Assembly (NCBI GenBank): GCA_043759595.1
Contig: JAYVLG010000071.1
Location: 5,495 to 29,494 of the forward strand
Reading direction: 5' to 3'
Length of the DNA: 24,000 nucleotides
Source of the DNA: Sulfurirhabdus sp.
GTDB lineage: Bacteria > Pseudomonadota > Gammaproteobacteria > Burkholderiales > SMCO01
The translations under genes and the position numbers were made by a program. Position 1 is the first letter of the stretch, and each line of letters opens with the position of its first letter. Below the pieces are notes generated by a model, which saw only the letters and a list, made by a program, of their open reading frames with translations, was not told where the DNA came from and did not search any database. Shown here piece by piece: positions 3,599 to 23,481 of this stretch.

Positions 3599-3630
3599 AA
3601 AAAAAAAGCGCAACCTATTTAGGTTGCGCT
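3599..3630 (-). terminator. strong unidirectional intrinsic terminator with no annotated gene upstream
   Basis: On the minus strand, a perfect 10-bp stem AGCGCAACCT/AGGTTGCGCT (3607-3616 / 3621-3630) with a 4-nt loop is followed by a run of 9 U (3599-3607). Confidence 0.8.
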
Positions 3631-3703
3631 AAAATCCACCAAAGAAGGGGGATGGAGGAGACACCATCAAGACGCTTATTAAGATGGGGAAGCGTCCAGA
3701 TGT
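3599..3703 (-). ncRNA. candidate ~105-nt small RNA (promoter + terminator defined), function unknown
   Basis: Bounded by the promoter-like TTGCAC-17-GATAAT (3738-3710) and the terminator at 3599-3630. It contains a hairpin GACGCTT...AAGCGTC (3671-3696) and a C/U-rich stretch CUCCUCCAUCCCCCUUCUUU. No ORF longer than 12 codons. Confidence 0.3.
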
Positions 3704-5030: not shown

Positions 5031-5063
5031 ATCCCACCTAAAACAACTTCTACACACAGAGCT

Positions 5064-5091
5064 TTCACCGCAGAGGCGCGGAGGCGCAGAG
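5064..5091 (+). repeat. family A repeat, copy A1 (TTCACC + 3 octamers), solo
   Basis: ttcaccgcagaggcgcggaggcgcagag. It lies between the convergent OsmC-family gene and the 5112-5438 ORF. Confidence 0.9.
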
Positions 5092-5111
5092 AAAACCGCC
5101 TCCCTACTTCT

Positions 5112-8635: not shown

Positions 8636-8858
8636 GTGTTTCTCCGTAAATTGGTTTGAGTTTACATTTTGCAACTGCCATTTAAAACTCGGCGTCGCAA
8701 AATTTACCTCTCTAAAACTGAGAAGTTGAGCCCATTGTGCCAAAGAGTGAAAAGTCATGACAAGCTTTTAATGAGCAACAGGTAACATTGGTCATTCTTA
8801 TTGTTGTTTTTTTGCAACATTGAATTATGGTCTTGCGAGAATTGCGCAGGGCGGTTTT

Positions 8859-8878
8859 TTACCGCAGAGGCGCGGAGG
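8859..8878 (+). repeat. family A repeat, copy A2 (truncated after 2 octamers)
   Basis: ttaccgcagaggcgcggagg. It is the left arm of an inverted pair with A3. Confidence 0.8.
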
Positions 8879-8970
8879 AAAGCGAAGCTTGTAATAGCTG
8901 TAAACAGTGGCGCTACGGTTTTGCCAGACTGGATACTTACGAATCAAGCAATTTGGAATGCCTTTACTTT

Positions 8971-8998
8971 CTCTGCGCCTCCGCGCCTCTGCGGTTAA
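8971..8998 (-). repeat. family A repeat, copy A3
   Basis: ctctgcgcctccgcgcctctgcggttaa, which matches rc of A5 28/28. Confidence 0.9.
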
Positions 8999-9007
8999 AC
9001 GGCTTTA

Positions 9008-9029
9008 AATGAAAACAGGGAACGTCCCT
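9008..9029 (-). terminator. weak candidate terminator after trpC
   Basis: On the minus strand, AGGGA-CGT-TCCCT (starting at the stop codon) is followed by GTTTTCATTT. The stem is short. Confidence 0.3.
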
Positions 9030-9871
9030 TAACCAAACAACCTTGCCAGCTCCTGACCCGGATCAGAGGCGCGCATGAATGCTTCACCGACGAGGAAGGT
9101 GTGGACGTTGTGATTACGCATGAGTGCGACGTCTTCTGGTTTGTGAATGCCGCTTTCGGTGACGACTATTCGGTCCGCAGGGATGTTTGACAACAATTCG
9201 AGGGTGGTTTCGAGGCGGGTTTCGAAGGTGCGCAAGTTTCGATTGTTGATGCCAATCAGGGGGGTGGTGAGTTGCAGGGCGATATCCAGTTCGGTGCTGT
9301 CGTGTACTTCTACCAGTACGGCCATGCCTAGTTTATGGGCTAGTTTCTCCAGTTCCTGCATGGCGGCAAGATTGAAGGTTGCGGCACCCTCTCCCCTGCC
9401 CTCTCCCATCGAGGGAGAGGGGGTTTGAAAGGCGGCGACTATGATCAATATGGCATCGGCTCCCATTGCGCGGGCTTCGTAGACTTGATACGGGTCTATC
9501 ATGAAATCTTTGCGCAATACTGGCAGGTTACAGGCTGCGCGGGCTTGTTTGAGATATTCTGCATTCCCCTGAAAAAATTGCTCGTCTGTTAATACAGACA
9601 GGCAAGCTGCACCATGTTGGGCGTAGCTTTGTGCAATTTCGGCGGGATTGAAATTTTCGCGTAGCAGGCCTTTGCTGGGGCTGGCTTTTTTGATTTCTGA
9701 AATAACAGCTGATTTGTCGGCCTGAATTTTGTTGCGAATGGCGGCTACAAAATCTCTTGGAGCGGGTTGTGCCTGGGCTTCTGCCTTGACCGCGTGTAAC
9801 GGTTTTGCGACTTTTGCTGTGGCTACTTCTTGCGCTTTGACGGAGAGGATTTTATTTAGGATATCGGACAT
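9029..9871 (-). CDS. trpC: indole-3-glycerol phosphate synthase, carrying an in-frame repeat-derived insertion
   Basis: 280 aa: [55 protein letters not shown]. There is an extra segment [19 protein letters not shown] between ILIIVAA and the following helix. Confidence 0.93.
9385..9423 (+). repeat. family C hairpin repeat, copy C1, inside the trpC coding sequence
   Basis: caccctctcccctgccctctcccatcgagggagaggggg, 37/39 identical to C6 at 12095-12133. It is translated on the minus strand as [12 protein letters not shown]. Confidence 0.9.
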
Positions 9872-9879
9872 AGTTTTTA

Positions 9880-9899
9880 TTCACCGCAAAGGCGCAGAG
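9880..9899 (+). repeat. family A repeat, copy A4 (two-octamer short form)
   Basis: ttcaccgcaaaggcgcagag. The head lies 9 nt upstream of the trpC ATG on the mRNA strand. Confidence 0.8.
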
Positions 9900-9974
9900 T
9901 AATTTAAATTAAGTTCAAGTACACCGGCACAAGAGTTACACATTATATTGCTCATATTTCCTAGCATGGTATTT

Positions 9975-10002
9975 TTAACCGCAGAGGCGCGGAGGCGCAG
10001 AG
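9975..10002 (+). repeat. family A repeat, copy A5 (encodes the C-terminus and stop of the GxxExxY gene)
   Basis: ttaaccgcagaggcgcggaggcgcagag. Its rc encodes ...SAPPRLCG*. Confidence 0.9.
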
Positions 10003-10409
10003 GTTTCTTGGAGCTGGTTCACTAGTCTCTTAATTCCAAGCTTTAGAATGGGAACATTGAAATTAATTAGCAGCCCTACGGTGCATGGGTATAGTTTGAG
10101 ATAGGTTAGCAACTGCGCTTCATGAATTGGGGCTAGTTTTTCGACTGTTTTAAGTTCAATGATTACGCTTCCTTCAACAACCAAATCCAGCATATAACCA
10201 CAATCCAGTTTTATATTCTTATAGCTGACTGGCAACGCTACTTGCCTGCGAAAACTGAGGCCTTGGCTGGATATTTCATAGCACAGGCACTCTTCATAGG
10301 CAGATTCCAACAGTCCGGGGCCTAGCGTACGGTGCACTTCAATTGCGCAACCAATGATCGCCTCGGTAATTTGGTTTTCACTCTGCGCCTCTGCGCCTCC
10401 GCGGTTCAT
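9975..10409 (-). CDS. GxxExxY family protein (PD-(D/E)XK nuclease superfamily fold)
   Basis: 144 aa with [25 protein letters not shown] (GLLESAY is the GxxExxY motif) and [13 protein letters not shown] (D...ExK). The ATG overlaps the trpD stop as ATGA (10406-10409). No SD. Confidence 0.85.
10381..10408 (-). repeat. family A repeat, copy A6 (encodes the N-terminus of the GxxExxY gene)
   Basis: ctctgcgcctctgcgcctccgcggttca. Its rc encodes [10 protein letters not shown]. The octamer order is permuted relative to A5. Confidence 0.9.
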
Positions 10410-11434
10410 TGCACTTTAAACTGATTTGAAAATGCTACCAGTTGTTGCAACTTGGCTTTGGCTGCTCCGTTTTCCAAAACTGCTTGGGCTTTTGCGACCC
10501 CTTCAGCCAGCGTGTCCGCCAGACCGGATGTGTATATTGCCGCGCCTGCATTAAGAGCTACGATATCGCGCGCCGAGCCGGGCTGATTTTCAAGCGCTGT
10601 CATCAACATGGCTTGAGCTTCTTCCAGATTGTGCACTTCCAGCGTGCTGGAACTGCTGGTGGCCAGGCCAAACTGGGCTGGGTTCAATATATATTCTTTT
10701 ACGTTACCGTCTTTCAGTTCTGCTACGTAGGTATCTCCCGCCAGGGAAATTTCATCGAGGCCATCTGCGGCATGCACGACCATGACATGGCGGCTACCCA
10801 GTTCTTTCAGGACATGGGCCAGCTTGCCTACCAGATCTTTGCTGAACACCCCCATCACCTGATTTTTTGCACCGGCTGGGTTGGTCATTGGGCCCAGTAA
10901 ATTGAACAAGGTACGCACACCCAGCTCCCGACGCACAGGTGCTGCATGTTTCATGGCGCTGTGGTGGTTGGGGGCAAACATGAAGCCGACACCGATTTCT
11001 TTTACCGATTGCGCGACCTGATCCGGGGTGACATTCACATTCACACCCAGCACTTCCAGTACATCGGCACTGCCACAAGTACTGGATACAGAACGTCCAC
11101 CATGCTTGGCAACTTTGGCGCCTGCTGCGGCGGCGACCAGTGCGCTGGCTGTGGAGATATTAAAGGTATGGGTGCCATCGCCACCGGTGCCGCAGGTGTC
11201 AACGACATGTTCCAGATCTTGCAGGGGTACTTTGGTGGCCAGTTCACGCATTACGTGGGCTGCGGCAGCGAGTTCGGTGACAGTTTCGCCTTTGCAGCGC
11301 AAGCCGATCAGTATGCCGGCAATTTGTACGGGGGTCATTTCGCCCCCCATGATTTGCTGCATGACTGCGAGCATTTCTTCGCGGGTGAGGTCGCGTTTTT
11401 CTATTAAGGCTGTAATTGCGGTTTTAGCGTCCAT
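10406..11434 (-). CDS. trpD: anthranilate phosphoribosyltransferase
   Basis: 342 aa: [45 protein letters not shown]. Confidence 0.95.
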
Positions 11435-11456
11435 TTATATTGCACCTGTTATTTTA

Positions 11457-11495
11457 CTCCCTCTCCCTTGATGGGAGAGGGCTGGGGAGAGGGTG
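11457..11495 (-). repeat. family C repeat, copy C2
   Basis: Its rc, caccctctccccagccctctcccatcaagggagagggag, is 38/39 identical to C6. Confidence 0.9.
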
Positions 11496-11514
11496 GAGAA
11501 ATAACGTTGGTTCG

Positions 11515-11553
11515 CCCCCTCTTCCTGTCCTTCTCCCACGAGGGGAGAAGGGA
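11515..11553 (+). repeat. family C repeat, copy C3 (diverged)
   Basis: ccccctcttcctgtccttctcccacgaggggagaaggga. It has the same architecture, with hairpin TTCTCCC-ACGA-GGGGAGAA. Confidence 0.75.
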
Positions 11554-11589
11554 CCTGCTAATCAGTTCTCATCCGGAAACATCTGTTTT

Positions 11590-11628
11590 TTCCTCCCCCT
11601 TGATGGGGGAAAGCCAGGGAGAGGATGG
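11590..11628 (-). repeat. family C repeat, copy C4 (diverged)
   Basis: ttcctcccccttgatgggggaaagccagggagaggatgg. Confidence 0.7.
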
Positions 11629-11646
11629 TAACGCCTTGAAATTTAA

Positions 11647-11684
11647 CCCCTATCCCCAGCCCTCTCCCACAAGGGGAGAGGGAG
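11647..11684 (+). repeat. family C repeat, copy C5
   Basis: cccctatccccagccctctcccacaaggggagagggag. Confidence 0.8.
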
Positions 11685-11750
11685 ATGTAGTGTTTCCGGA
11701 TGGGAACTAATTAATATGATCTTATAATGCCGACACCCAAGCTTTTGGCT

Positions 11751-12119
11751 CTACCGCATTAAATGTTGGGTAATGACATCCCATACACCATCCATATTCT
11801 GCAACACATCATGATTCCAGAATCTTAACACTTCAAACCCTTGTGATTGGAGCCAGCTTGTCCTTGTTTCGTCTTTTATTTCATGCACTGGGTCTGCATG
11901 TTTGCCCCCATCCAGCTCTACCACCAATTTTTTCTCGAAGCAGACAAAATCTACCACATAGTTGCCTATGGGTTGCTGCCGTTTGAATTTGCATCCATGC
12001 AACTGTTTGGCTCGCAGTTGCTGCCATAGCTTTTTTTCAGCTTCGGTGATGTTTTTTCTTAGCTGTTTGGCTATGTCGGTTAAATGGTTTGGCACACCCT
12101 CTCCCCTGCCCTCTCCCAT
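11751..12119 (-). CDS. DUF559 domain endonuclease-like protein (Vsr-like PD-(D/E)XK fold)
   Basis: LRKNITEAEKKLWQQLR...FKRQQPIGNYVVDFVCFEKKLVVELDGGKHAD...RTSWLQSQGFEVLRFWNHDV is the DUF559 pattern. The ATG at 12119 (or TTG at 12122) lies in the loop of repeat C6, and the N-terminus MGEGRGEG is repeat-encoded. No SD. Confidence 0.8.
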   Translation of the reverse strand: MGEGRGEGVPNHLTDIAKQLRKNITEAEKKLWQQLRAKQLHGCKFKRQQPIGNYVVDFVCFEKKLVVELDGGKHADPVHEIKDETRTSWLQSQGFEVLRFWNHDVLQNMDGVWDVITQHLMR

Positions 12120-12133
12120 CAAGGGAGAGGGAG
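12095..12133 (+). repeat. family C repeat, copy C6 (contains the DUF559 start codon; ends 1 nt from the trpG stop)
   Basis: caccctctcccctgccctctcccatcaagggagagggag. Confidence 0.9.
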
Positions 12134-12134
12134 T

Positions 12135-12704
12135 TTAAGTGCCTCCGCGCAGAAAATTAGCCAGCATTTCGTGCCCGTATTCGGTAAGTATGGATTCCGG
12201 GTGGAATTGCACGCCTTCTACGGCCAGGGTTTTATGACGCACGCCCATGATTTCCTGATCTTCTGTCCAGGCAGTGATTTCCAGGCAATCTGGCAAGCTT
12301 TCACGTTCGATCACCAATGAATGATAGCGTGTGGCATTGAACGGGTTTGCCAAACCTTTAAACACGCCGATATCTTTGTGATATACCTGTGAGGTTTTGC
12401 CATGCATGAGCTGTTTGGCATGGACTATCTTGCCGCCGAATGCCTGGCCGATACTCTGATGCCCCAGACAGACACCTAAAATAGGCGTCTTTCCTGCAAA
12501 CTGCTTTATTAACGGTACGGAAATGCCGGCTTCGTTGGGTGTGCAGGGGCCGGGAGAAATGACAATATGGGTGGGGTTCAATACGGCCACCTGATTCAGG
12601 TCTATTTCATCATTTCGGTACACCACGACTTCCTGGTTTAACTCTCCAAAATACTGAACGAGGTTGTAGGTGAAGGAGTCGTAATTGTCGATCATTAACA
12701 GCAT
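12135..12704 (-). CDS. trpG: anthranilate synthase component II (glutamine amidotransferase)
   Basis: 189 aa: [26 protein letters not shown] (catalytic Cys), [13 protein letters not shown]. Confidence 0.93.
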
Positions 12705-12709
12705 ATTTT

Positions 12710-12737
12710 TTCACCACAGCGGCACAGAGGCATAGAG
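12710..12737 (+). repeat. family A repeat, copy A7 (decayed, 6 mismatches)
   Basis: ttcaccacagcggcacagaggcatagag. The head lies 6 nt upstream of the trpG ATG on the mRNA strand. Confidence 0.7.
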
Positions 12738-12797
12738 AAAGTCAAAACCATTATTTGAATCTCTTTGATTCGTTTTTTAGCATTGAGCGAGTTGGCA

Positions 12798-14276
12798 TTA
12801 GTCATGGGCTGTTTCCCCCAATCCGGCGAGTACCAGTTCTGCGGCACGTAGCACGGCCCGGGCTTTATTCTGGGTTTCTGTCCATTCGCTTTGTGGTACG
12901 GAATCCGCCACGATGCCGGCGCCAGCCTGGACGTACAGGGTGTCATCCTGAATCACAGCTGTGCGGATGGCGATGGCTAAATCCATGTCACCATTAAATC
13001 CCAGATAACCGACTGCGCCAGCGTAAACACCGCGTTTGGTAGGTTCCAGTTCGTCGATAATTTCCATGGCGCGCACTTTGGCTGCGCCGGACACCGTTCC
13101 GGCCGGGAAGGTGGCGCGCAGTACGTCCATATTATTGAGGCCGGGTTTTAGCTTGGCTTCTACATTGGAAACAATGTGCATCACATGGGAATAATGTTCG
13201 ATATTCATGTTTTCCGTGACTTTGACGCTGCCTGTCTGCGCTACCCGTCCAATGTCGTTGCGACCCAGATCCATCAGCATGAGGTGCTCAGCCAGTTCTT
13301 TGGGATCGGACAGCAAGTCTTTGGCCAAGGCTTCATCTTCTTCACGGGTAATGCCACGAGGGCGAGTACCGGCTATAGGTCTGACAGTGACTTCATCGCC
13401 TTCCTGGCGCACCAGAATTTCTGGCGAGGCACCAACCACATGGAAACCGCCCATGTCGTAATAAAACATGTACGGAGAAGGATTGAGGCTACGCAATGCG
13501 CGATACAAGGAAAGGGGTGAAGCAATAAATGGCTGGCTCATGCGTTGCGACAGCACAACCTGCATGATGTCGCCGTCAAAAATATATTGCTTGGCGCGCT
13601 CAACGGCTGCTTTGAAAGCGTCTTCACCAAATTCGGATACCGCTTGCACTGGCCCAACCGGCGCATGTAATGAAGCATCTACCGGCCGACTCAGGTTCCT
13701 GCCCAATTCATGCAAGCGTTGCTGTGCCAGCAAATAGGCATCAGGAACAAACGGGTCTGCATACACAATCAGATAGAGCTTGCCGGAAAGATTATCTACG
13801 ACAGCCAATTCTTCTGACAAAAGCAGCAAAATGTCCGGCATGTGGAGCGTATCGGGCTTGCTGGATTTGGCTAGTTTTGGCTCAATGTAACGAACGGTGT
13901 CGTAGCCAAAGTAACCTACCAGACCACCCCCGAACCGGGGCAGCCCAGGGCGGGGAGCAACATTGAAGCGCTGCATGTAGTCGCTGATGAAGGCCAGCGG
14001 ATCAGCGACGTCCTGTTGTTCCAGAATGCCTTCGTTATTTTCTACAGTGACCAGATGGCCATGCACACGAATGCGGGTTTTGGCAGGCAGGCCGATAAAT
14101 GAGTAGCGACCAAAACGTTCGCCCCCCTGCACGGATTCCAGCAGGTAGGAGAAAGGCTGATTCGCCAGTTTGAGATAAACCGATAAAGGCGTGTCCAGAT
14201 CGGACAGCATTTCTTTTACCAGCGGAATCCGGTTGTAGCCCTGACGGGCCAGTTCGATAAATTCTTGTTCAGTCAT
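12798..14276 (-). CDS. trpE: anthranilate synthase component I
   Basis: 492 aa: [65 protein letters not shown]. Confidence 0.95.
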
Positions 14277-14281
14277 GATTT

Positions 14282-14309
14282 TTCACCACAGAGACAATGA
14301 GACACAGAG
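14282..14309 (+). repeat. family A repeat, copy A8 (decayed, 7 mismatches)
   Basis: ttcaccacagagacaatgagacacagag. The head lies 6 nt upstream of the trpE ATG on the mRNA strand. Confidence 0.7.
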
Positions 14310-14354
14310 AAAACGTTAAATACAAACCATCCGGCTTGCGCCAAACGTAAGCAC

Positions 14355-14386
14355 AAAAGGACAGCATCGCCATGATGCTGCCTTTG
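14355..14386 (-). terminator. candidate terminator downstream of gph
   Basis: On the minus strand, GGCAGCATC-ATGGC-GATGCTGTCC is followed by TTTTGTGCTT. Confidence 0.5.
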
Positions 14387-14399
14387 TACTGATTTGTGC

Positions 14400-14419
14400 C
14401 TCTGCGCCTTTGTGGTTCA
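14400..14419 (-). repeat. family A repeat, copy A9 (two-octamer short form)
   Basis: ctctgcgcctttgtggttca, whose rc resembles A4. It lies 5 nt from the gph stop. Confidence 0.7.
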
Positions 14420-14424
14420 CGCCA

Positions 14425-17422: not shown

Positions 17423-18637
17423 ATGGAAAGCCAAATCAAAACCGCTTCACCCTTATTTGCCATCCTTTTCCTGTTATTTGGCATCAGTGCCTGTACGACG
17501 GTTTCCAAACCGAAGGTTGCCCCTCCAGCTATCGCACTTCCCCCTGTAGTGACTCCGCCAGTTAGTGTGAAAACTGAACCCGCTGCACCGACGCTGCAAA
17601 TAAGTGACTGGAAAGCTTTGCCTGGCTGGCAGGATGATAACCAGGCTACCGCCTGGGAAGCCTTTCTGCAAAGTTGTAACGGCCTGAAAAATCAGGTTGC
17701 ATGGCAGCAAGTATGTAAATCAGGGCAGCAAATTCAACACCCTGACAGCCAGTCCCTGAGACGATTTTTTGAACAGAATTTCACCCCTTATCTGGCAACA
17801 AACCCGGACGGGACGTCCCAAGGCATGATCACAGGTTATTACGAACCTGTGTTAAGAGGCAGCCGCACCCGCACTGCAAAATACCGCTTTCCACTCTATG
17901 GGGCGCCGGGCGATTTACTCAATATCGAACTGGCTGATGTTTATCCGGAGCTGAAGGGCTTGCGGTTACGAGGCCGCATTCAAGGCAATAAAGTTGTGCC
18001 TTATTACAGCCGTGCTGAAATTGAAAGTGCACAGTCACCGCTGAAAGGGTCAGAATTTTTATGGGTTGATGATGCTATCGACCTGTTCTTTTTGCATGTT
18101 CAGGGTTCCGGCCGTGTGAAACTCGAAAATGGCGAATCTGTGAGAATCGGATATGCCAACCAAAATGGCTTCCCTTATAAATCCATTGGCAAAGTTTTGG
18201 TTGATCGTGGCGAGCTGCCCCTGGAAAAAGCATCTGCACAAGGCATTAAAGACTGGACGCTGAAAAATCCGGGAAAAATGTCCGAGTTGTTAAACAACAA
18301 TGCCAGTTATGTGTTTTTTCGGGAGATGCCGAATCATCAAAATGGTCCGACCGGATCGCTTGGTGTTCCCCTCACAGCCGGACGCAGCATTGCCGTTGAC
18401 CCCCGCTCTATACCACTGGGCGCACCGGTTTTCCTTTCCACCACCTGGCCTAACAGTACCAAACCCCTTAGCCGTTTAGTGATGGCACAAGATACGGGTG
18501 CTGCAATCAAAGGTGGCGTTCGCGCTGATTTCTTTTGGGGATTTGGTAATGATGCGGGAGCACTTGCCGGCCGCATGAAACAGCAGGGGCAATTATGGGT
18601 ATTGTTGCCCAAGGGATACCCGGTTAGCACGAATTAG
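17423..18637 (+). CDS. mltA: membrane-bound lytic murein transglycosylase A (lipoprotein)
   Basis: Lipobox ...LFGISAC, then ITGYYEP, FLHVQGSGRV, YKSIG, SIAVDP, AQDTGAAIKG (MltA/3D domain motifs). Confidence 0.9.
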   Translation: MESQIKTASPLFAILFLLFGISACTTVSKPKVAPPAIALPPVVTPPVSVKTEPAAPTLQISDWKALPGWQDDNQATAWEAFLQSCNGLKNQVAWQQVCKSGQQIQHPDSQSLRRFFEQNFTPYLATNPDGTSQGMITGYYEPVLRGSRTRTAKYRFPLYGAPGDLLNIELADVYPELKGLRLRGRIQGNKVVPYYSRAEIESAQSPLKGSEFLWVDDAIDLFFLHVQGSGRVKLENGESVRIGYANQNGFPYKSIGKVLVDRGELPLEKASAQGIKDWTLKNPGKMSELLNNNASYVFFREMPNHQNGPTGSLGVPLTAGRSIAVDPRSIPLGAPVFLSTTWPNSTKPLSRLVMAQDTGAAIKGGVRADFFWGFGNDAGALAGRMKQQGQLWVLLPKGYPVSTN

Positions 18638-18722
18638 CTCTCATCCGGAAACAACTGCCCCCCTCCCTTTGATGTGGGAGGGCCAGGGAGGGGTATAGCG
18701 TTTCCGGATGAGAACTCATTAA
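18634..18722. mobile_element. nested MITE-like element (family D TIRs around one family C copy) filling the mltA/TonB-like convergent gap
   Basis: ttagctctcatccggaaaca (18634-18653) and gtttccggatgagaactcattaa (18700-18722) are inverted repeats around C7. The ends include the mltA TAG (18635-18637) and the TonB-like TAA (rc 18719-18721). It probably acts as a bidirectional terminator hairpin. Confidence 0.65.
18657..18694 (-). repeat. family C repeat, copy C7 (diverged)
   Basis: cccccctccctttgatgtgggagggccagggaggggta. Confidence 0.7.
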
Positions 18723-20421: not shown

Positions 20422-20506
20422 GTATTTTTCCGGTCACTATGCGCCAATAAGTGCATTGTGCTGATAGGTGTGTAGAAAGAAATACACGCCTATTCACACA
20501 AATTAG

Positions 20507-20527
20507 TTCACCGCAGAGGCGCGGAGG
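20507..20527 (+). repeat. family A repeat, copy A10 (truncated)
   Basis: ttcaccgcagaggcgcggagg. Confidence 0.8.
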
Positions 20528-20585
20528 GAAAAGCGGTTTCGAGGTGCTTCAGGTTGCGTATGGTGGTCGTTAATGCGCCGAATAA

Positions 20586-20617
20586 CGGTCAATGCACTTC
20601 GCTTATTGACACCCTAC
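20586..20617 (-). repeat. family B REP hairpin, copy B1 (GTAG head on minus strand)
   Basis: The rc reads GTAGGGTGTCAATAAGCGAAGTGCATTGACCG. Confidence 0.7.
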
Positions 20618-20701
20618 AACACGCCTTGCATGCGTTGCAAGTCAGTAAGGCTCTTGGCGACGCAGCAGCCATCCAGAATTTAAGTTCAATCATCTCAATT
20701 G

Positions 20702-20785: not shown

Positions 20786-21847
20786 ATGAACCTTTACACG
20801 GAATTAACCAATACGGCACAAACCGCCTATGCGCAACTTGTTGATGCGGCATTGTCTGCAGAGCATTTACGCTCGGTTGCAGACCTTTCTGGCTCCTTTG
20901 CGGCAAAGACGGTCAAGGGGCACAAATATTGGTACTACCAGTACACCGAGCCGTCAGGGAAGTTGCGGCAAGTTTTCGTAGGACCGGACAATGACGGGGT
21001 TAGAGCACTGATCGAGCGCAAAATACAACCCGCTTCCACTAAAGCGCTTGAACCACTTGCGCGTTCGGCTGAAGCCCTAGGTTGCGCCCCCGTGCTACCG
21101 CGCCATTTCAGAGTAGTACGCCGTCTGGCGGAGTACGGTTTTTTCCAAGCCGGAGGCGTGTTGATTGGCACGCACGCCTTTCTGGCATACGGCAACATGC
21201 TGGGGGTGCAATGGGGCGACGCTTCGCGCACGCAGGACATTGACTTCGCCCATGCAGGCAAGAGCTTGTCCCTCGCCTTACCTTCGAACATCGAGGTGCA
21301 AACGCATGACGCCATTCAATCTCTGCGAATGGGCTTCCTGCCTATTTCCGGGCTATCCTCCAAGGCTGGTGGCACTTACCTCATTCCGCAAGAGCCAGGA
21401 TTCAGGCTGGATTTTCTGACAACGCTTCATCGAGGCGGCGAAAAACCTTACGAACATAAACAATTGCACGTAACCCTGCAACCGCTCAAGTTCATGGAGT
21501 TCTCACTTGAACAAGTGCAACAAACCGTATTGTTCTGCAACGAAGGCGCGGTGGTTGTCAATATACCGCACCCCCTTCGCTATGCCTTGCACAAAGCGCT
21601 GATATCTGGAGAACGCGAAGGTACATTTGCCGTAAAAGCTGGAAAGGATTTGCGGCAAGTGGCATCCCTGCTTTCTTTTTTCAAGGAACACAGAGCGTGG
21701 GAAATCGAAGAGATTTGGAATGACCTGATTACACGCGGCAAGGGATGGACAACCCGAGCGCACAGAGGGATTAAGGTGTTGGACAAAGGGTTCCCAGCGC
21801 TTTGTTTGCATGATTTGTTAAGATTCCCGGATGCTTCGACCAAGTAA
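20786..21847 (+). CDS. nucleotidyltransferase-fold protein, AbiEii/DUF1814-like (GSU2403-type) with ~110-aa N-terminal extension
   Basis: NTase-like GGVLIGTHAFLAYG...RTQDIDFAH, a third acidic strand FRLDFLT, and a C-terminal HKALISGER...KAGKDLRQV resembling the AbiEii K..A...R...RDL..L region. Family recognition is from memory, not a search. Confidence 0.7.
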   Translation: MNLYTELTNTAQTAYAQLVDAALSAEHLRSVADLSGSFAAKTVKGHKYWYYQYTEPSGKLRQVFVGPDNDGVRALIERKIQPASTKALEPLARSAEALGCAPVLPRHFRVVRRLAEYGFFQAGGVLIGTHAFLAYGNMLGVQWGDASRTQDIDFAHAGKSLSLALPSNIEVQTHDAIQSLRMGFLPISGLSSKAGGTYLIPQEPGFRLDFLTTLHRGGEKPYEHKQLHVTLQPLKFMEFSLEQVQQTVLFCNEGAVVVNIPHPLRYALHKALISGEREGTFAVKAGKDLRQVASLLSFFKEHRAWEIEEIWNDLITRGKGWTTRAHRGIKVLDKGFPALCLHDLLRFPDASTK

Positions 21848-21914
21848 ACGTTGAGATTTAATACCAGTTCAGAAATGCGTATAAAAGAAATACACGAGTA
21901 TTCACACAAAATAG

Positions 21915-21942
21915 TTCACCGCAGAGACGCGGAGGCGCAGAG
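21915..21942 (+). repeat. family A repeat, copy A11
   Basis: ttcaccgcagagacgcggaggcgcagag (1 mismatch to A1). Confidence 0.9.
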
Positions 21943-22006
21943 GAAAAGGCTGTTTCGAGGTGCATCAACTCGCTTAGAGTGATCGATAAAGCAACGAATA
22001 AAACAT

Positions 22007-22040
22007 CCGGTGCAATGCGCTTCGCTTATTGACACCCTAC
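22007..22040 (-). repeat. family B REP hairpin, copy B2
   Basis: The rc reads GTAGGGTGTCAATAAGCGAAGCGCATTGCACCGG. Confidence 0.75.
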
Positions 22041-22141
22041 AAGATGCCTTACGCGCGCTATGGCTTACCCCGGCACTTTTAGCAAAATGGGCACGCTGTA
22101 AATAAAGTGGATGATACAAATCCAATTTAGAGGGAAACTAA

Positions 22142-23050
22142 TTGATCAATCTACGAACCACCGTATTTAACACATTGTTGCTTGCCATGTTTTGTCTGCC
22201 AATTAGCAGTTATGCCGCGACGGTGGGGCAACAATTCCGCGACATCATGGCGCAGATTGATGCCAAGTGTAAAAAAGAAAAACTCGGTCCATATCTTGAC
22301 CCAAATGAACCCCCACGCTCAGACAAACGCTCTGATGGTTCCTGCGAAATTCTCAAGGTCAAACCCGCCGACCCGCTGGCAACGGCAGAAGGGCGCTTTG
22401 CCTATTCCATCAAATTGCCACCGCCGCATGACAAGCCGAAAGTCGAATACCGGAAAGGCATGAGCGCGGAGACCTACTTTAAGGAGTTGTGCGCTAAAGA
22501 GGAGGGGGATTTTGTGTTCCGGGTGGTTGATGGAGTGGAGGGGATTACAATTATGCGGCCATTGCCGCAGGTAATCGGCATTCCTTTGTCGCAGGAGTCA
22601 GGGGGGCCAACCGTAGGTTCTTTTGTATCATCTATCAACGGAATATACAGATATGTTGATGCGGTTGAGCTTCTCGAAAACTCAAACACACAAACCCAAC
22701 TAATTCATTATAAAGTTGACCCGAAATTGCCGGTTAACAAACCGCCATACGGTAAGGCGAGTTATGCCATCAAAGAATCGCAAGCGCGCTATGGCTACAC
22801 ATTTCGAAATTCATTTCTGGAAAATAGAGAAATTGGAGTTGTGGGACAGGAATTAATTATTGCAGATCTGCAAACCAATGAGATTCTTGCATTTCGGCGT
22901 AGATTTTCACGATTAAATTTTATGGTTCGTAACTCTGTTCGACCTATGTTAGGCACACCTTGCAGATTAATACCTACCGAAAACTCAGATAACAGATTTG
23001 TCGCAAAAATTCTCAAACCTGCAAAACAAGCTAAAGGAGATCAGAAATGA
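22142..23050 (+). CDS. secreted protein of unknown function
   Basis: TTG start with a GAGGGA SD 7 nt upstream. Signal peptide MINLRTTVFNTLLLAMFCLPISSYA/AT. The 3' third is visibly AT-rich. No family recognised. Confidence 0.6.
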   Translation: MINLRTTVFNTLLLAMFCLPISSYAATVGQQFRDIMAQIDAKCKKEKLGPYLDPNEPPRSDKRSDGSCEILKVKPADPLATAEGRFAYSIKLPPPHDKPKVEYRKGMSAETYFKELCAKEEGDFVFRVVDGVEGITIMRPLPQVIGIPLSQESGGPTVGSFVSSINGIYRYVDAVELLENSNTQTQLIHYKVDPKLPVNKPPYGKASYAIKESQARYGYTFRNSFLENREIGVVGQELIIADLQTNEILAFRRRFSRLNFMVRNSVRPMLGTPCRLIPTENSDNRFVAKILKPAKQAKGDQK

Positions 23051-23151
23051 GCACAATTATTCAAACCTGGTATAACTTTGCTCTGCAACAGTTCGCGCAA
23101 GAGCGCAATAACCAAAGGGCATTGCGCCGCATGCAAGAGATGAGATGCTAA
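23047..23151 (+). CDS. possible 34-codon micro-ORF translationally coupled to the secreted-protein gene
   Basis: The ATG overlaps the upstream TGA (ATGA at 23047-23050). It translates to MSTIIQTWYNFALQQFAQERNNQRALRRMQEMRC. It is below the ORF-track size cutoff, and the overlap is the only support. Confidence 0.2.
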   Translation: MSTIIQTWYNFALQQFAQERNNQRALRRMQEMRC

Positions 23152-23163
23152 CGCCATTTCTGA

Positions 23164-23387
23164 TTATCAACGCGCCCGACATCCAAGTGGCACCTATTTC
23201 CCACTGTCAATCTGTCACAACGTAACGGATGAGTAAAGTAAGAGCCAGCCAGTGTGAACGGCGGTTTTGAGAGCGCTTAATCCGGGACGAAGAAGATTAT
23301 CGGGCACATATGAATTATGAGCATATCAATACGGTGAAGCGTGGTTTGGTTGGGCAGGTGATGGCGGCGCTAAGTTATACATACTAA
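23164..23387 (+). pseudogene. decayed REP-associated tyrosine transposase (RAYT / TnpA_REP) remnant
   Basis: The frame at 23170-23232 gives ..TSKWHLFPTVNLSQRNG*, resembling the RAYT N-terminal strand (GTWFFTVNLRNR). A second frame at 23253-23387 gives CERRF*ERLIRDEEDYRAHMNYEHINTVKRGLVGQV..., matching the RAYT C-terminus (RFWEH.IR...DYR.H.DYI.INPVK.G.V.QV) with W changed to a stop. The central HUH region is missing. Confidence 0.65.
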
Positions 23388-23390
23388 CAT

Positions 23391-23423
23391 CCGGTGCAAT
23401 GCCCTTCGGTTATTGCACCCTAC
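23391..23423 (-). repeat. family B REP hairpin, copy B3 (best palindrome)
   Basis: The rc reads GTAG-GGTGCAAT-AACCGAAGGGC-ATTGCACC-GG: a GTAG head plus a perfect 8-bp stem. It starts 4 nt after the RAYT remnant. Confidence 0.8.
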
Positions 23424-23441
23424 ACAACGCCTTGTTTTTTT

Positions 23442-23469
23442 CTCTGCGTCTCCGCGCCTCTGCGGTTAA
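23442..23469 (-). repeat. family A repeat, copy A12
   Basis: ctctgcgtctccgcgcctctgcggttaa (rc has 1 mismatch to A5). Confidence 0.9.
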
Positions 23470-23481
23470 AAAGGCATTTCT

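Follow-up and report, generated by a model that had tools for sequence, protein, structure and literature searches.

A nuclease gene bounded by inverted repeats lies within the trp operon

The 24,000-nucleotide (nt) stretch analyzed here, referred to as the window, represents part of the core chromosome of a Sulfurirhabdus-like betaproteobacterium (Sulfuricellaceae), and in its trp operon, encoded on the minus strand, a small nuclease-fold gene of the GxxExxY (PDDEXK_3) family is found between trpD and trpC. The operon comprises trpE (12798-14276), trpG (12135-12704), a DUF559 gene that occupies the trpG-trpD gap (11751-12122), trpD (10406-11434), the GxxExxY open reading frame (ORF; 144 amino acids, 9975-10409) and trpC (9029-9871), with trpD and trpC being the host genes upstream and downstream of the nuclease gene, respectively. 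Both the GxxExxY protein and TrpD are 94% identical to their S. autotrophica counterparts, and the gene order on the S. autotrophica contig is the same. The GxxExxY gene and the inverted repeats at its two ends, together termed the cassette, are the subject of this report.

An earlier note on this DNA, made from the letters alone, had described the gene as a discrete 434-bp unit bounded by 28-nt repeats that are inverted relative to each other and match at 25 of 28 positions. The unit and its boundaries hold, while its length is to be corrected to 435 bp, stop codon included; the 25/28 match is that of the extended arms, read by eye, and the core arms (9977-10002 and 10381-10406, 26 nt) are 92% complementary (24/26). 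The left terminal repeat, IR-L (10381-10409, minus strand, ATGAACCGCGGAGGCGCAGAGGCGCAGAG), contains the ATG of the cassette, whose TGA is the trpD stop, so that the two genes overlap in the ATGA at 10406-10409, as well as three 8-nt sub-repeats that include GGAGG and AGAGG. The right terminal repeat, IR-R (9974-10002, plus strand, TTTAACCGCAGAGGCGCGGAGGCGCAGAG), encodes the last codons of the ORF and its TAA stop. Both the first 10 codons and the last 8 (SAPPRLCG*) fall inside the arms, in agreement with the note, which had also read the ATGA overlap correctly. In each repeat, an outer TT(C/A)ACC precedes three 8-nt sub-repeats in tandem (CGCNGAGN). Beyond IR-R, a poorly conserved 73-nt spacer (9901-9973, minus strand), which carries a 6-nt indel relative to S. 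autotrophica, leads to an extra right-end copy, R' (9877-9900, plus strand; on the minus strand ...CTCTGCGCCTTTGCGGTGAATAA), detected in the repeat scan of the window. The GGTGA of R' is located ~10 nt before the trpC ATG, and R' takes the position that the right end of the cassette takes in Sulfuricella (locus L079).

The scan for promoter-like and terminator-like sites found none on the minus strand from trpD to trpC, and no Shine-Dalgarno-like run precedes the ATG of the ORF, as the note had stated; translational coupling of the cassette to trpD is plausible. The repeats matched no Rfam family at the gathering score, the single Rfam match of the window being RF02278, a Betaproteobacteria toxic small RNA, at 3600-3663 on the minus strand (61 bits, gathering score 50).

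The cassette encodes a GxxExxY-family protein with a probable PD-(D/E)XK fold

The core of the ORF is matched over its whole length by two hidden Markov model families, Pfam PDDEXK_3 (PF13366; E 5.3e-45, residues 12-128, 153 bits with the cut-off at 22) and NCBIfam TIGR04256 (GxxExxY; E 5.7e-47, 158.9 bits against a cut-off of 35), which places it in the GxxExxY family. Its motifs, G32-LL-E35-SA-Y38 (GLLESAY) and D75...E85-L-K87, are of the PD-(D/E)XK type, as originally proposed, and are kept across 33 homologues, with E35, E85 and K87 being invariant and D75 conserved in at least 90%. An AF2 model (pLDDT 79) displays the order of helices and strands expected for a PD-(D/E)XK core; a Foldseek search of the PDB with this model returned weak best matches, to Cas4 and lambda exonuclease, and no solved structure related by sequence or profile was found. 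The gene is under purifying selection (dN/dS 0.096 relative to S. autotrophica, compared to 0.047 for trpD).

That the protein lies outside the known transposase classes, as the earlier note had put it, is borne out by the searches: Pfam and NCBIfam gave PDDEXK_3 alone and no DDE, HUH, serine or tyrosine recombinase domain in the ORF, the PADLOC defense models gave nothing significant (their sole match being Cas4 at E 0.005), the PHROGs phage models gave zero matches, and neither the defense nor the phage library yielded a transposase. PF13366 is a family separate from the homing endonucleases, without a characterized member, and a survey of the PD-(D/E)XK superfamily lists the function of PDDEXK_3 as 'Unknown' (PMC3424549). 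The family is large, with 23,978 cluster representatives at 50% identity (E up to 1e-3). Among its members are fused two-domain proteins of 260-295 amino acids (P0241-P0256); since the second domain lacks the ExK residues in those that were read, the arrangement suggests a pseudo-dimer with one active site.

Gene and repeats recur as one unit across the family

The association of gene and repeats, which the earlier note had proposed to check in paralogs, extends well beyond this locus. A flanking inverted repeat scoring at least 14 was found at 67 of 80 metagenomic homologues and at none of 305 control segments (control maximum 12), the controls being random segments of the same length from the same contigs. 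Both consensus termini (CCGCNGAGNCGCNGAGNCGCNGAG), of the form CCGC-N-GAG-N-CGC-N-GAG-N-CGC-N-GAG, were present in 76 of the 80, which had been ranked by full-length similarity, a ranking that favors copies with translated repeat ends. The end-to-end length was exactly 426 bp in 33 of these homologues and within 418-434 bp in 49. In samples chosen regardless of their ends, inverted repeats were found in 5/8 trp cassettes located by means of TrpD and in 4/8 plasmid-borne genes (five phyla), and contigs from viral bins had them at 4/6 GxxExxY loci, phage carriage being scarce (these 6 loci in 2.9 million viral contigs).

The design of the arms is better conserved than their sequence. Every arm consists of 3-5 tandem sub-repeats with a period of 8-13 nt, usually with an outer TTCACC, and the sub-repeats themselves differ: arms at other trp junctions read CACAGAG, GCAGAGGAC, CACCAAG or CAGGGAGG, the arm sequences of different protein lineages also include CACAGAGA, CACCAAGA and CGCGAAGN, TTACTTAAAATT is found in AT-rich DNA, and the viral-bin contigs carry AT-rich sub-repeats of 12-13 nt. 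The same design, with other repeat sequences, is found in Bacteroides, Bernardetia, Sphingomonas and Gemmatirosa. Longer forms of 561-586 bp occur in the moxR-DUF58 gap (loci L132, L140, L152, L155, L156, L159, L160 and L164), where outer CCGCAGAGACGC-type arms enclose an inner inverted repeat (GAGAGCGCAGAGGGGGCAGAGGTAA) around the gene, an arrangement suggestive of a cassette nested within the arms of a second one.

Cassettes occupy tight operon junctions and carry putative translation signals in their ends

Cassettes of this kind were found in ~25 distinct junctions, including moxR-DUF58, nuoF-nuoG, nuoK-nuoL, trpD-trpC, trpE-trpG, fabD-fabG, radA, tad secretin-tadG and a pilin cluster. These are tight gaps in housekeeping operons, and the cassette is nearly always co-oriented with its neighbors. 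In 57/60 cases the distance from the upstream stop codon to the left end is at most 24 nt, and in 55/66 a downstream start on the same strand follows the right end by no more than 25 nt. The right end reads GCGG|TGA in 45 of 70 elements, which places a GGTGA at ribosome-binding distance from the next gene; in the window, a right-end copy with GGTGA precedes each of trpC, trpE and trpG. The left end is TTCACC in the long forms and ATGAACC or ATGCACC in the compact ones, creating a start codon. From these termini we infer that the cassette would bring along its own start, its own stop and a ribosome-binding motif for the gene that it displaces. Programmed inversion between the arms, an idea prompted by a reported DUF559 enrichment (PMC9881135), was ruled out, as every cassette with readable neighbors is co-oriented with them.

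The trpD-trpC junction is empty in close relatives

A TrpD-based scan returned 80 betaproteobacterial trp loci, to which exact-protein look-ups added closer relatives, and in most of the 80 loci trpD and trpC nearly abut. In three relatives (TrpD 82-86% identical), the TGA of trpD is followed by 6-7 nt (CCGAAA or GCGATAA) and the ATG of trpC, the empty junction of relative L166 reading ...GTGGCTTGACCGAAAATGTCC..., and in a fourth (TrpD 80%) a ParE toxin-antitoxin pair occupies the junction. Cassettes of the same subfamily are present at trpD-trpC in S. autotrophica and three more distant lineages, Sulfuricella and Thiobacillus carry other GxxExxY subfamilies there, and seven related loci have an intact GxxExxY cassette between trpE and trpG. 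Thus the junction, which the earlier note had proposed as the place to look for an empty site, is not occupied identically everywhere: it is empty in three relatives and has other contents in others. The cassette is an insertion into the 6-7-nt trpD-trpC spacer, and the pattern would reflect either repeated site-directed gain or an old gain followed by precise loss.

Other small genes of a selfish type were seen in the trp gaps of relatives: a GIY-YIG nuclease in trpG-trpD, a Uma2-like endonuclease, so called after reading its sequence by eye, and, in trpD-trpC, PhD/YoeB-like, RelE-like and ParE toxin-antitoxin pairs (L079 4588-4872; L198 1149-1433; L015 6174-6779; L052 4068-4697; L049 2166-2676; L077; L169 4084-4634). 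No flanking inverted repeats were found at the toxin-antitoxin and Uma2-like genes. In Sulfuricella, the trpD frame is broken by an insert of ~114 nt (L079 5213-5327; the tblastn match is split at residues 71 and 58), which may be another in-frame repeat insertion.

Such a distribution brings to mind a free-standing homing endonuclease gene ('intronless homing'), which, in genomes that lack it, would cut either the unoccupied junction or some conserved host sequence close by and be copied in by recombinational repair, with the repeats serving for expression or control alone. Both PD-(D/E)XK and DUF559/EDxHD-like folds are established among homing endonucleases (PMC3424549), and the position between conserved genes, the presence or absence at one site among close relatives, the lack of a target-site duplication, the same subfamily at trpD-trpC in four lineages and the other nuclease genes (DUF559, GIY-YIG, Uma2) in the gaps of the same operon would all fit. 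Yet proteins at least 61% identical occupy ~25 unrelated junctions, and a long specific site in the host flanks is therefore hard to reconcile; moreover, homing leaves unexplained both the conserved sub-repeat inverted repeats of every lineage and the solo and gene-less copies, described below, that share the variant of the resident cassette. We thus regard homing of this kind as improbable.

Gene-less copies of the repeat are scattered through the window

Six repeat copies were found in the window at no more than 3 mismatches (0.00 expected by chance), and a looser match raised the number to ~13, all of them outside gene bodies. The gene-less pairs that the earlier note had reported are indeed present, at 8855-8999 and 14277-14420. 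The former, on the minus strand between trpC and a porin gene, has arms at 8968-8999 and 8855-8878 with 99 nt between them; its left arm is 25/25 identical to IR-R, and its 8855-8878 arm differs from that of S. autotrophica by one 8-nt sub-repeat. The latter is a diverged pair on the minus strand, between a HAD hydrolase gene and trpE, with CACAGAG-like arms (14389-14420 and 14277-14312), a terminator-like hairpin inside and a GGTGA 7 nt before the trpE ATG. A decaying right-end copy (12705-12740, plus strand) lies directly 5' of the trpG ATG, reading ...GCTGTGGTGAAAAAAT-ATG on the minus strand, and a solo copy, 25/25 identical to IR-R, lies between the convergent OsmC and DUF2322 genes (5063-5094, plus strand). 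Further copies comprise a partial one of two sub-repeats (20504-20527, plus strand) and two with 1 mismatch each (21912-21945, plus strand, and 23439-23470, in the opposite orientation on the minus strand). The resident IR-R has an AGGGA variant that recurs in the copies at 5067 and 8971 but is rare elsewhere, being found in only 1 of 152 termini.

Two segments of ~160 nt that are 77-92% alike (20476-20634 and 21884-22057) each combine a copy of this repeat (family A) with a hairpin resembling a repetitive extragenic palindromic (REP) sequence, the first lying upstream of an NTP_transf_8 gene (20786-21847) and the second upstream of an unassigned 302-amino-acid ORF (22142-23050). Such REP-like hairpins (GGTGCAATGCCCTTCGGTTATTGCACC) are located at 23100-23133, 23388-23421, 22002-22031 and 20579-20608, and they flank a remnant of a RAYT-like gene at ~23270-23380 (translation ..RRF*ERLIRDEEDYRAHMNYEHINTVKRGLVGQV), assigned by eye. 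By this assignment, the window contains a third repeat system, formed by the remnant and its hairpins and distinct from the others.

The presence of gene-less solo and paired copies at seven or more sites of the window, together with a RAYT-like pseudogene and its REP-like hairpins, would be expected if the repeats were an independent family of the REP type or of the miniature inverted-repeat transposable element (MITE) type, moved by another enzyme such as a RAYT and prone to land at the ends of genes, with the GxxExxY gene as a trapped passenger. We consider this very improbable: both arms stand at a fixed distance in 76/80 homologues from unrelated genomes, with the start and stop codons lying inside the arms, divergent protein lineages carry different repeat sequences, the hairpins beside the RAYT remnant are of another sequence family, and the cassette arms are not GTAG-type palindromes.

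The arms are conserved in sequence rather than in pairing

When 65 non-redundant elements are compared, CGC and GAG are conserved to at least 95% at their positions in the left and the right arm alike, whereas the five N positions vary. Neither arm of the window differs from its S. autotrophica counterpart (29/29 identical each), while the gene core is identical at 330 of 377 positions, a rate at which ~7 differences would be expected in the 58 nt of the arms. Over the 12.4 kb that the two genomes share, repeat copies are 89% identical compared to 70% for other intergenic DNA, and the gene-less copies decay, one of them having lost an 8-nt sub-repeat.

The minimum-energy RNA fold predicts pairing of IR-L with IR-R, which closes off the ORF. 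Covariation across such an arm-to-arm stem was considered and rejected: the N positions agree in 187 of 325 cases (144 when shuffled), but they agree equally well out of register, and so the agreement reflects the composition of each lineage and not pairing. A stem alone does not account for the pattern, and sequence-specific recognition of the repeats is the simpler reading.

These data bear on the possibility that the gene is a domesticated, host-beneficial small nuclease acting in repair, defense or RNA processing, which spread by ordinary horizontal transfer and recombination rather than by mobilizing itself, with its repeats acting as RNA, be it a stem that gates translation of a potentially toxic nuclease, a relay of coupling to the downstream gene or an RNase III site. 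The dN/dS of 0.096, comparable to that of trpD, the long retention in the moxR-DUF58 and nuo operons, the predicted stem beside the start codon, the Shine-Dalgarno-like and anti-Shine-Dalgarno-like motifs of the arms, the GGTGA before the downstream start and the fact that three exact-protein look-ups saw no recent movement would all suit such a role. A pure stem, however, predicts compensatory changes, and what is observed is no in-register covariation and fixed positions conserved to at least 95%. Nor does host benefit readily accommodate the patchy presence among close relatives, the 72-74% identical cassettes in different phyla and junctions and the repeat copies away from any gene, and the known defense families give Cas4 at E 0.005 and nothing else. 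We deem a host-beneficial role unlikely.

The cassette as a proposed mobile, promoterless element

The reading that we favor, and hold to be somewhat probable, is that of a promoterless, selfish operon-junction cassette, consisting of a nuclease gene within ~28-nt inverted repeats, which was inserted at trpD-trpC in the Sulfurirhabdus lineage and has spread horizontally; the analysis supports the interpretation of the earlier note as a mobile element. Proteins 72-74% identical to that of the window are encoded in metagenome-assembled genomes (MAGs) of a deltaproteobacterium, within a pilin cluster, and of the Limisphaerales, at nuoK-nuoL, and we count these cassettes in junctions of other phyla, along with the patchy distribution and the rare AGGGA variant that gene-less copies share with the resident IR-R, as evidence for mobility.

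The unit would comprise an ORF of ~125 amino acids with a PD-(D/E)XK fold (GxxExxY, PF13366) and two ~28-nt terminal inverted repeats and, having no promoter-like site of its own, would be expressed along with the rest of the trp operon. The ATG, overlapping with the trpD stop, would come from the left repeat, as would purine-rich Shine-Dalgarno-like motifs, and the right repeat would contribute the stop of the ORF and, pointing outward, a GGTGA(A) that precedes the next host start by a few bases; because the repeats supply start, stop and ribosome-binding signals, the insertion would not have to exert a polar effect. Pairing of the two repeats in the mRNA could close off the ORF. The cassette would have spread into many operon junctions and between phyla, and gene-less copies would have been left behind in the genomes that carry it. 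Its own repeats are the probable substrate of the nuclease: it may recognize its sub-repeat arrays as duplex, single-strand fold-back or RNA, this recognition could drive insertion, excision or maintenance without a target-site duplication, and the gene-less copies may be made or kept by the same activity, as REPINs are by their RAYT.

Several observations weigh against this reading. A search of 70 elements (offsets 0-5, lengths 2-6, with a permutation control) found no target-site duplication, and three exact-protein look-ups found no identical proteins at different loci, each protein occurring in one context, and thus no sign that the cassettes are transposing at present. In the 12.4 kb shared with S. 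autotrophica, each of the nine repeat copies has kept its position; this repeat family shows no gain or loss between the two genomes over that region, where the only repeat differences are an unrelated 149-nt MITE and the one 8-nt sub-repeat change. At trpD-trpC, the identity of the GxxExxY protein tracks that of TrpD (94/94, 82/79, 74/72 and 69/63%), which fits old vertical inheritance and later loss. The gene-less pairs enclose unrelated DNA and are thus not simple deletion derivatives, and genes without inverted repeats are found in Variovorax, Persicobacter, Fusobacteria and Prevotella (the last two with direct repeats); to these is added the ranking bias in the 80 homologues mentioned above. 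The strong purifying selection and the long retention, as in the ~35 moxR-DUF58 loci, could mean a benefit to the host.

In keeping with the statement of the earlier note that no mechanism has been described for this combination of gene and repeats, the openly accessible literature gave no description under GxxExxY, PF13366, TIGR04256, DUF559 with inverted repeats or the repeat sequences themselves. We raise, tentatively, the further idea that GxxExxY cassettes may constitute a new class of autonomous mobile element, whose sole enzyme would be a nuclease that recognizes its own arm arrays, probably as a fold-back or cruciform, and moves the cassette and, in trans, its gene-less derivatives into operon gaps without a target-site duplication, with the DUF559 cassette described below as a parallel second family. 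If the nuclease does mobilize its own repeats, this would be a new enzyme class for bacterial transposition or homing, and the origin of a set of orphan intergenic repeats could be explained; in addition, a very large family, PF13366, is tied to a fixed cassette design across phyla, which makes for testable biology. Even otherwise, we have here a foreign gene that is tolerated inside an essential operon by carrying translational signals in its ends, with a bearing on operon evolution, on genome annotation (repeat-encoded N- and C-termini, and ORFs misnamed 'NADH dehydrogenase subunit') and on insertable expression modules.

A sibling DUF559 cassette and other repeats of the window

The DUF559 gene in the trpG-trpD gap (11751-12122) is likewise part of a cassette (11456-12134, minus strand), bounded by a 40-nt inverted repeat (11456-11495/12095-12134, 98%). 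S. autotrophica and L167 share this cassette, whereas L166, L168 and L169 lack it and retain nothing but repeat debris; its protein is 75% identical to the S. autotrophica copy and 83% to that of L167, the opposite of the flanking genes. An unrelated DUF559 gene at trpD-trpC of another lineage (L037) has a different 41-nt inverted repeat (40/41). As a parallel case, judged from these sequences, the DUF559 cassette strengthens the notion of a class of repeat-bounded cassettes.

Two further repeat insertions were observed. A 149-nt MITE with 23-nt terminal inverted repeats (TAATCAGTTCTCATCCGGAAACA) and two family-B hairpins inside is found at 11559-11713 and 18632-18721; the copy at 11559-11713 is absent from the orthologous S. 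autotrophica site and therefore represents a recent insertion or loss. A family-B repeat also lies in frame inside trpC (9385-9424), adding ~18 residues and resembling the Rickettsia palindromic elements; L005, L079 and L002 lack this insert, L166 has a longer form of it and L168 a degenerate one.

Comparison with known systems

In its working, the cassette reads as akin to a REPIN-RAYT pair or to a free-standing homing gene, and it belongs to neither family. As in REPIN-RAYT systems, one small nuclease-type gene lies between inverted copies of a repeat that is also scattered intergenically as singlets and inverted pairs, and the gene-less copies share the variant of the resident gene. RAYTs, however, are HUH/Y1 (IS200-like) transposases, whereas the enzyme of the cassette is predicted to have a PD-(D/E)XK fold; REPs are GTAG-headed palindromic hairpins, whereas the cassette arms are tandem 8-nt sub-repeats here and arrays of 3-5 sub-repeats family-wide; and it is the cassette that has its start and stop codons inside the repeats, sits in operons and has moved between phyla.

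Homing by nucleases is exemplified by the phage T4 seg and mob genes and by I-Ssp6803I, a PD-(D/E)XK enzyme, as well as by the EDxHD/Vsr-like I-Bth0305I. Homing endonuclease genes resemble the cassette in being small nuclease genes that lie between conserved genes, are present in some genomes and absent from others, and show no target-site duplication, yet they are without terminal inverted repeats or gene-less derivatives and occupy one site each, whereas the cassettes occupy ~25 junctions. Classical insertion sequences share the terminal inverted repeats, but the cassette shows neither their target-site duplication, nor a known transposase domain, nor, in the three exact-protein look-ups, identical copies at different loci.

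The gene-less pairs resemble the Correia (NEMIS) elements of Neisseria and other bacterial MITEs, which are likewise short, have inverted repeats at their ends, are transcribed along with neighboring genes and can form long stems in mRNA, the Correia stem being a substrate of RNase III. We know of no mobilizing enzyme for Correia elements and of no cognate protein-coding master copy; in addition, a TA target is duplicated there, whereas the cassette has no duplication and does have a protein-coding master copy. The Rickettsia palindromic elements offer a precedent for repeats tolerated inside expressed genes, comparable to the GxxExxY arms that are translated as protein termini, but they encode no enzyme and are not pairs that bound a gene.

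Integron cassettes are similarly compact, promoterless and co-oriented ORFs read from an upstream promoter, with an imperfect inverted repeat that can fold as a single strand; they differ in having attC at one end and an integrase with attI, whereas here repeats lie on both sides and the setting is that of housekeeping operons, and no integron integrase was found among the genes of the window. Lastly, TnsA of Tn7 and the Rpn/YhgA proteins (PDDEXK_2) belong to the fold superfamily predicted for the cassette protein and set a precedent for DNA cutting in transposition or recombination. TnsA needs the DDE protein TnsB, and Rpn proteins come without terminal repeats; the cassette ORF, which matches Pfam PDDEXK_3 alone, differs from both in sharing no sequence family with them.

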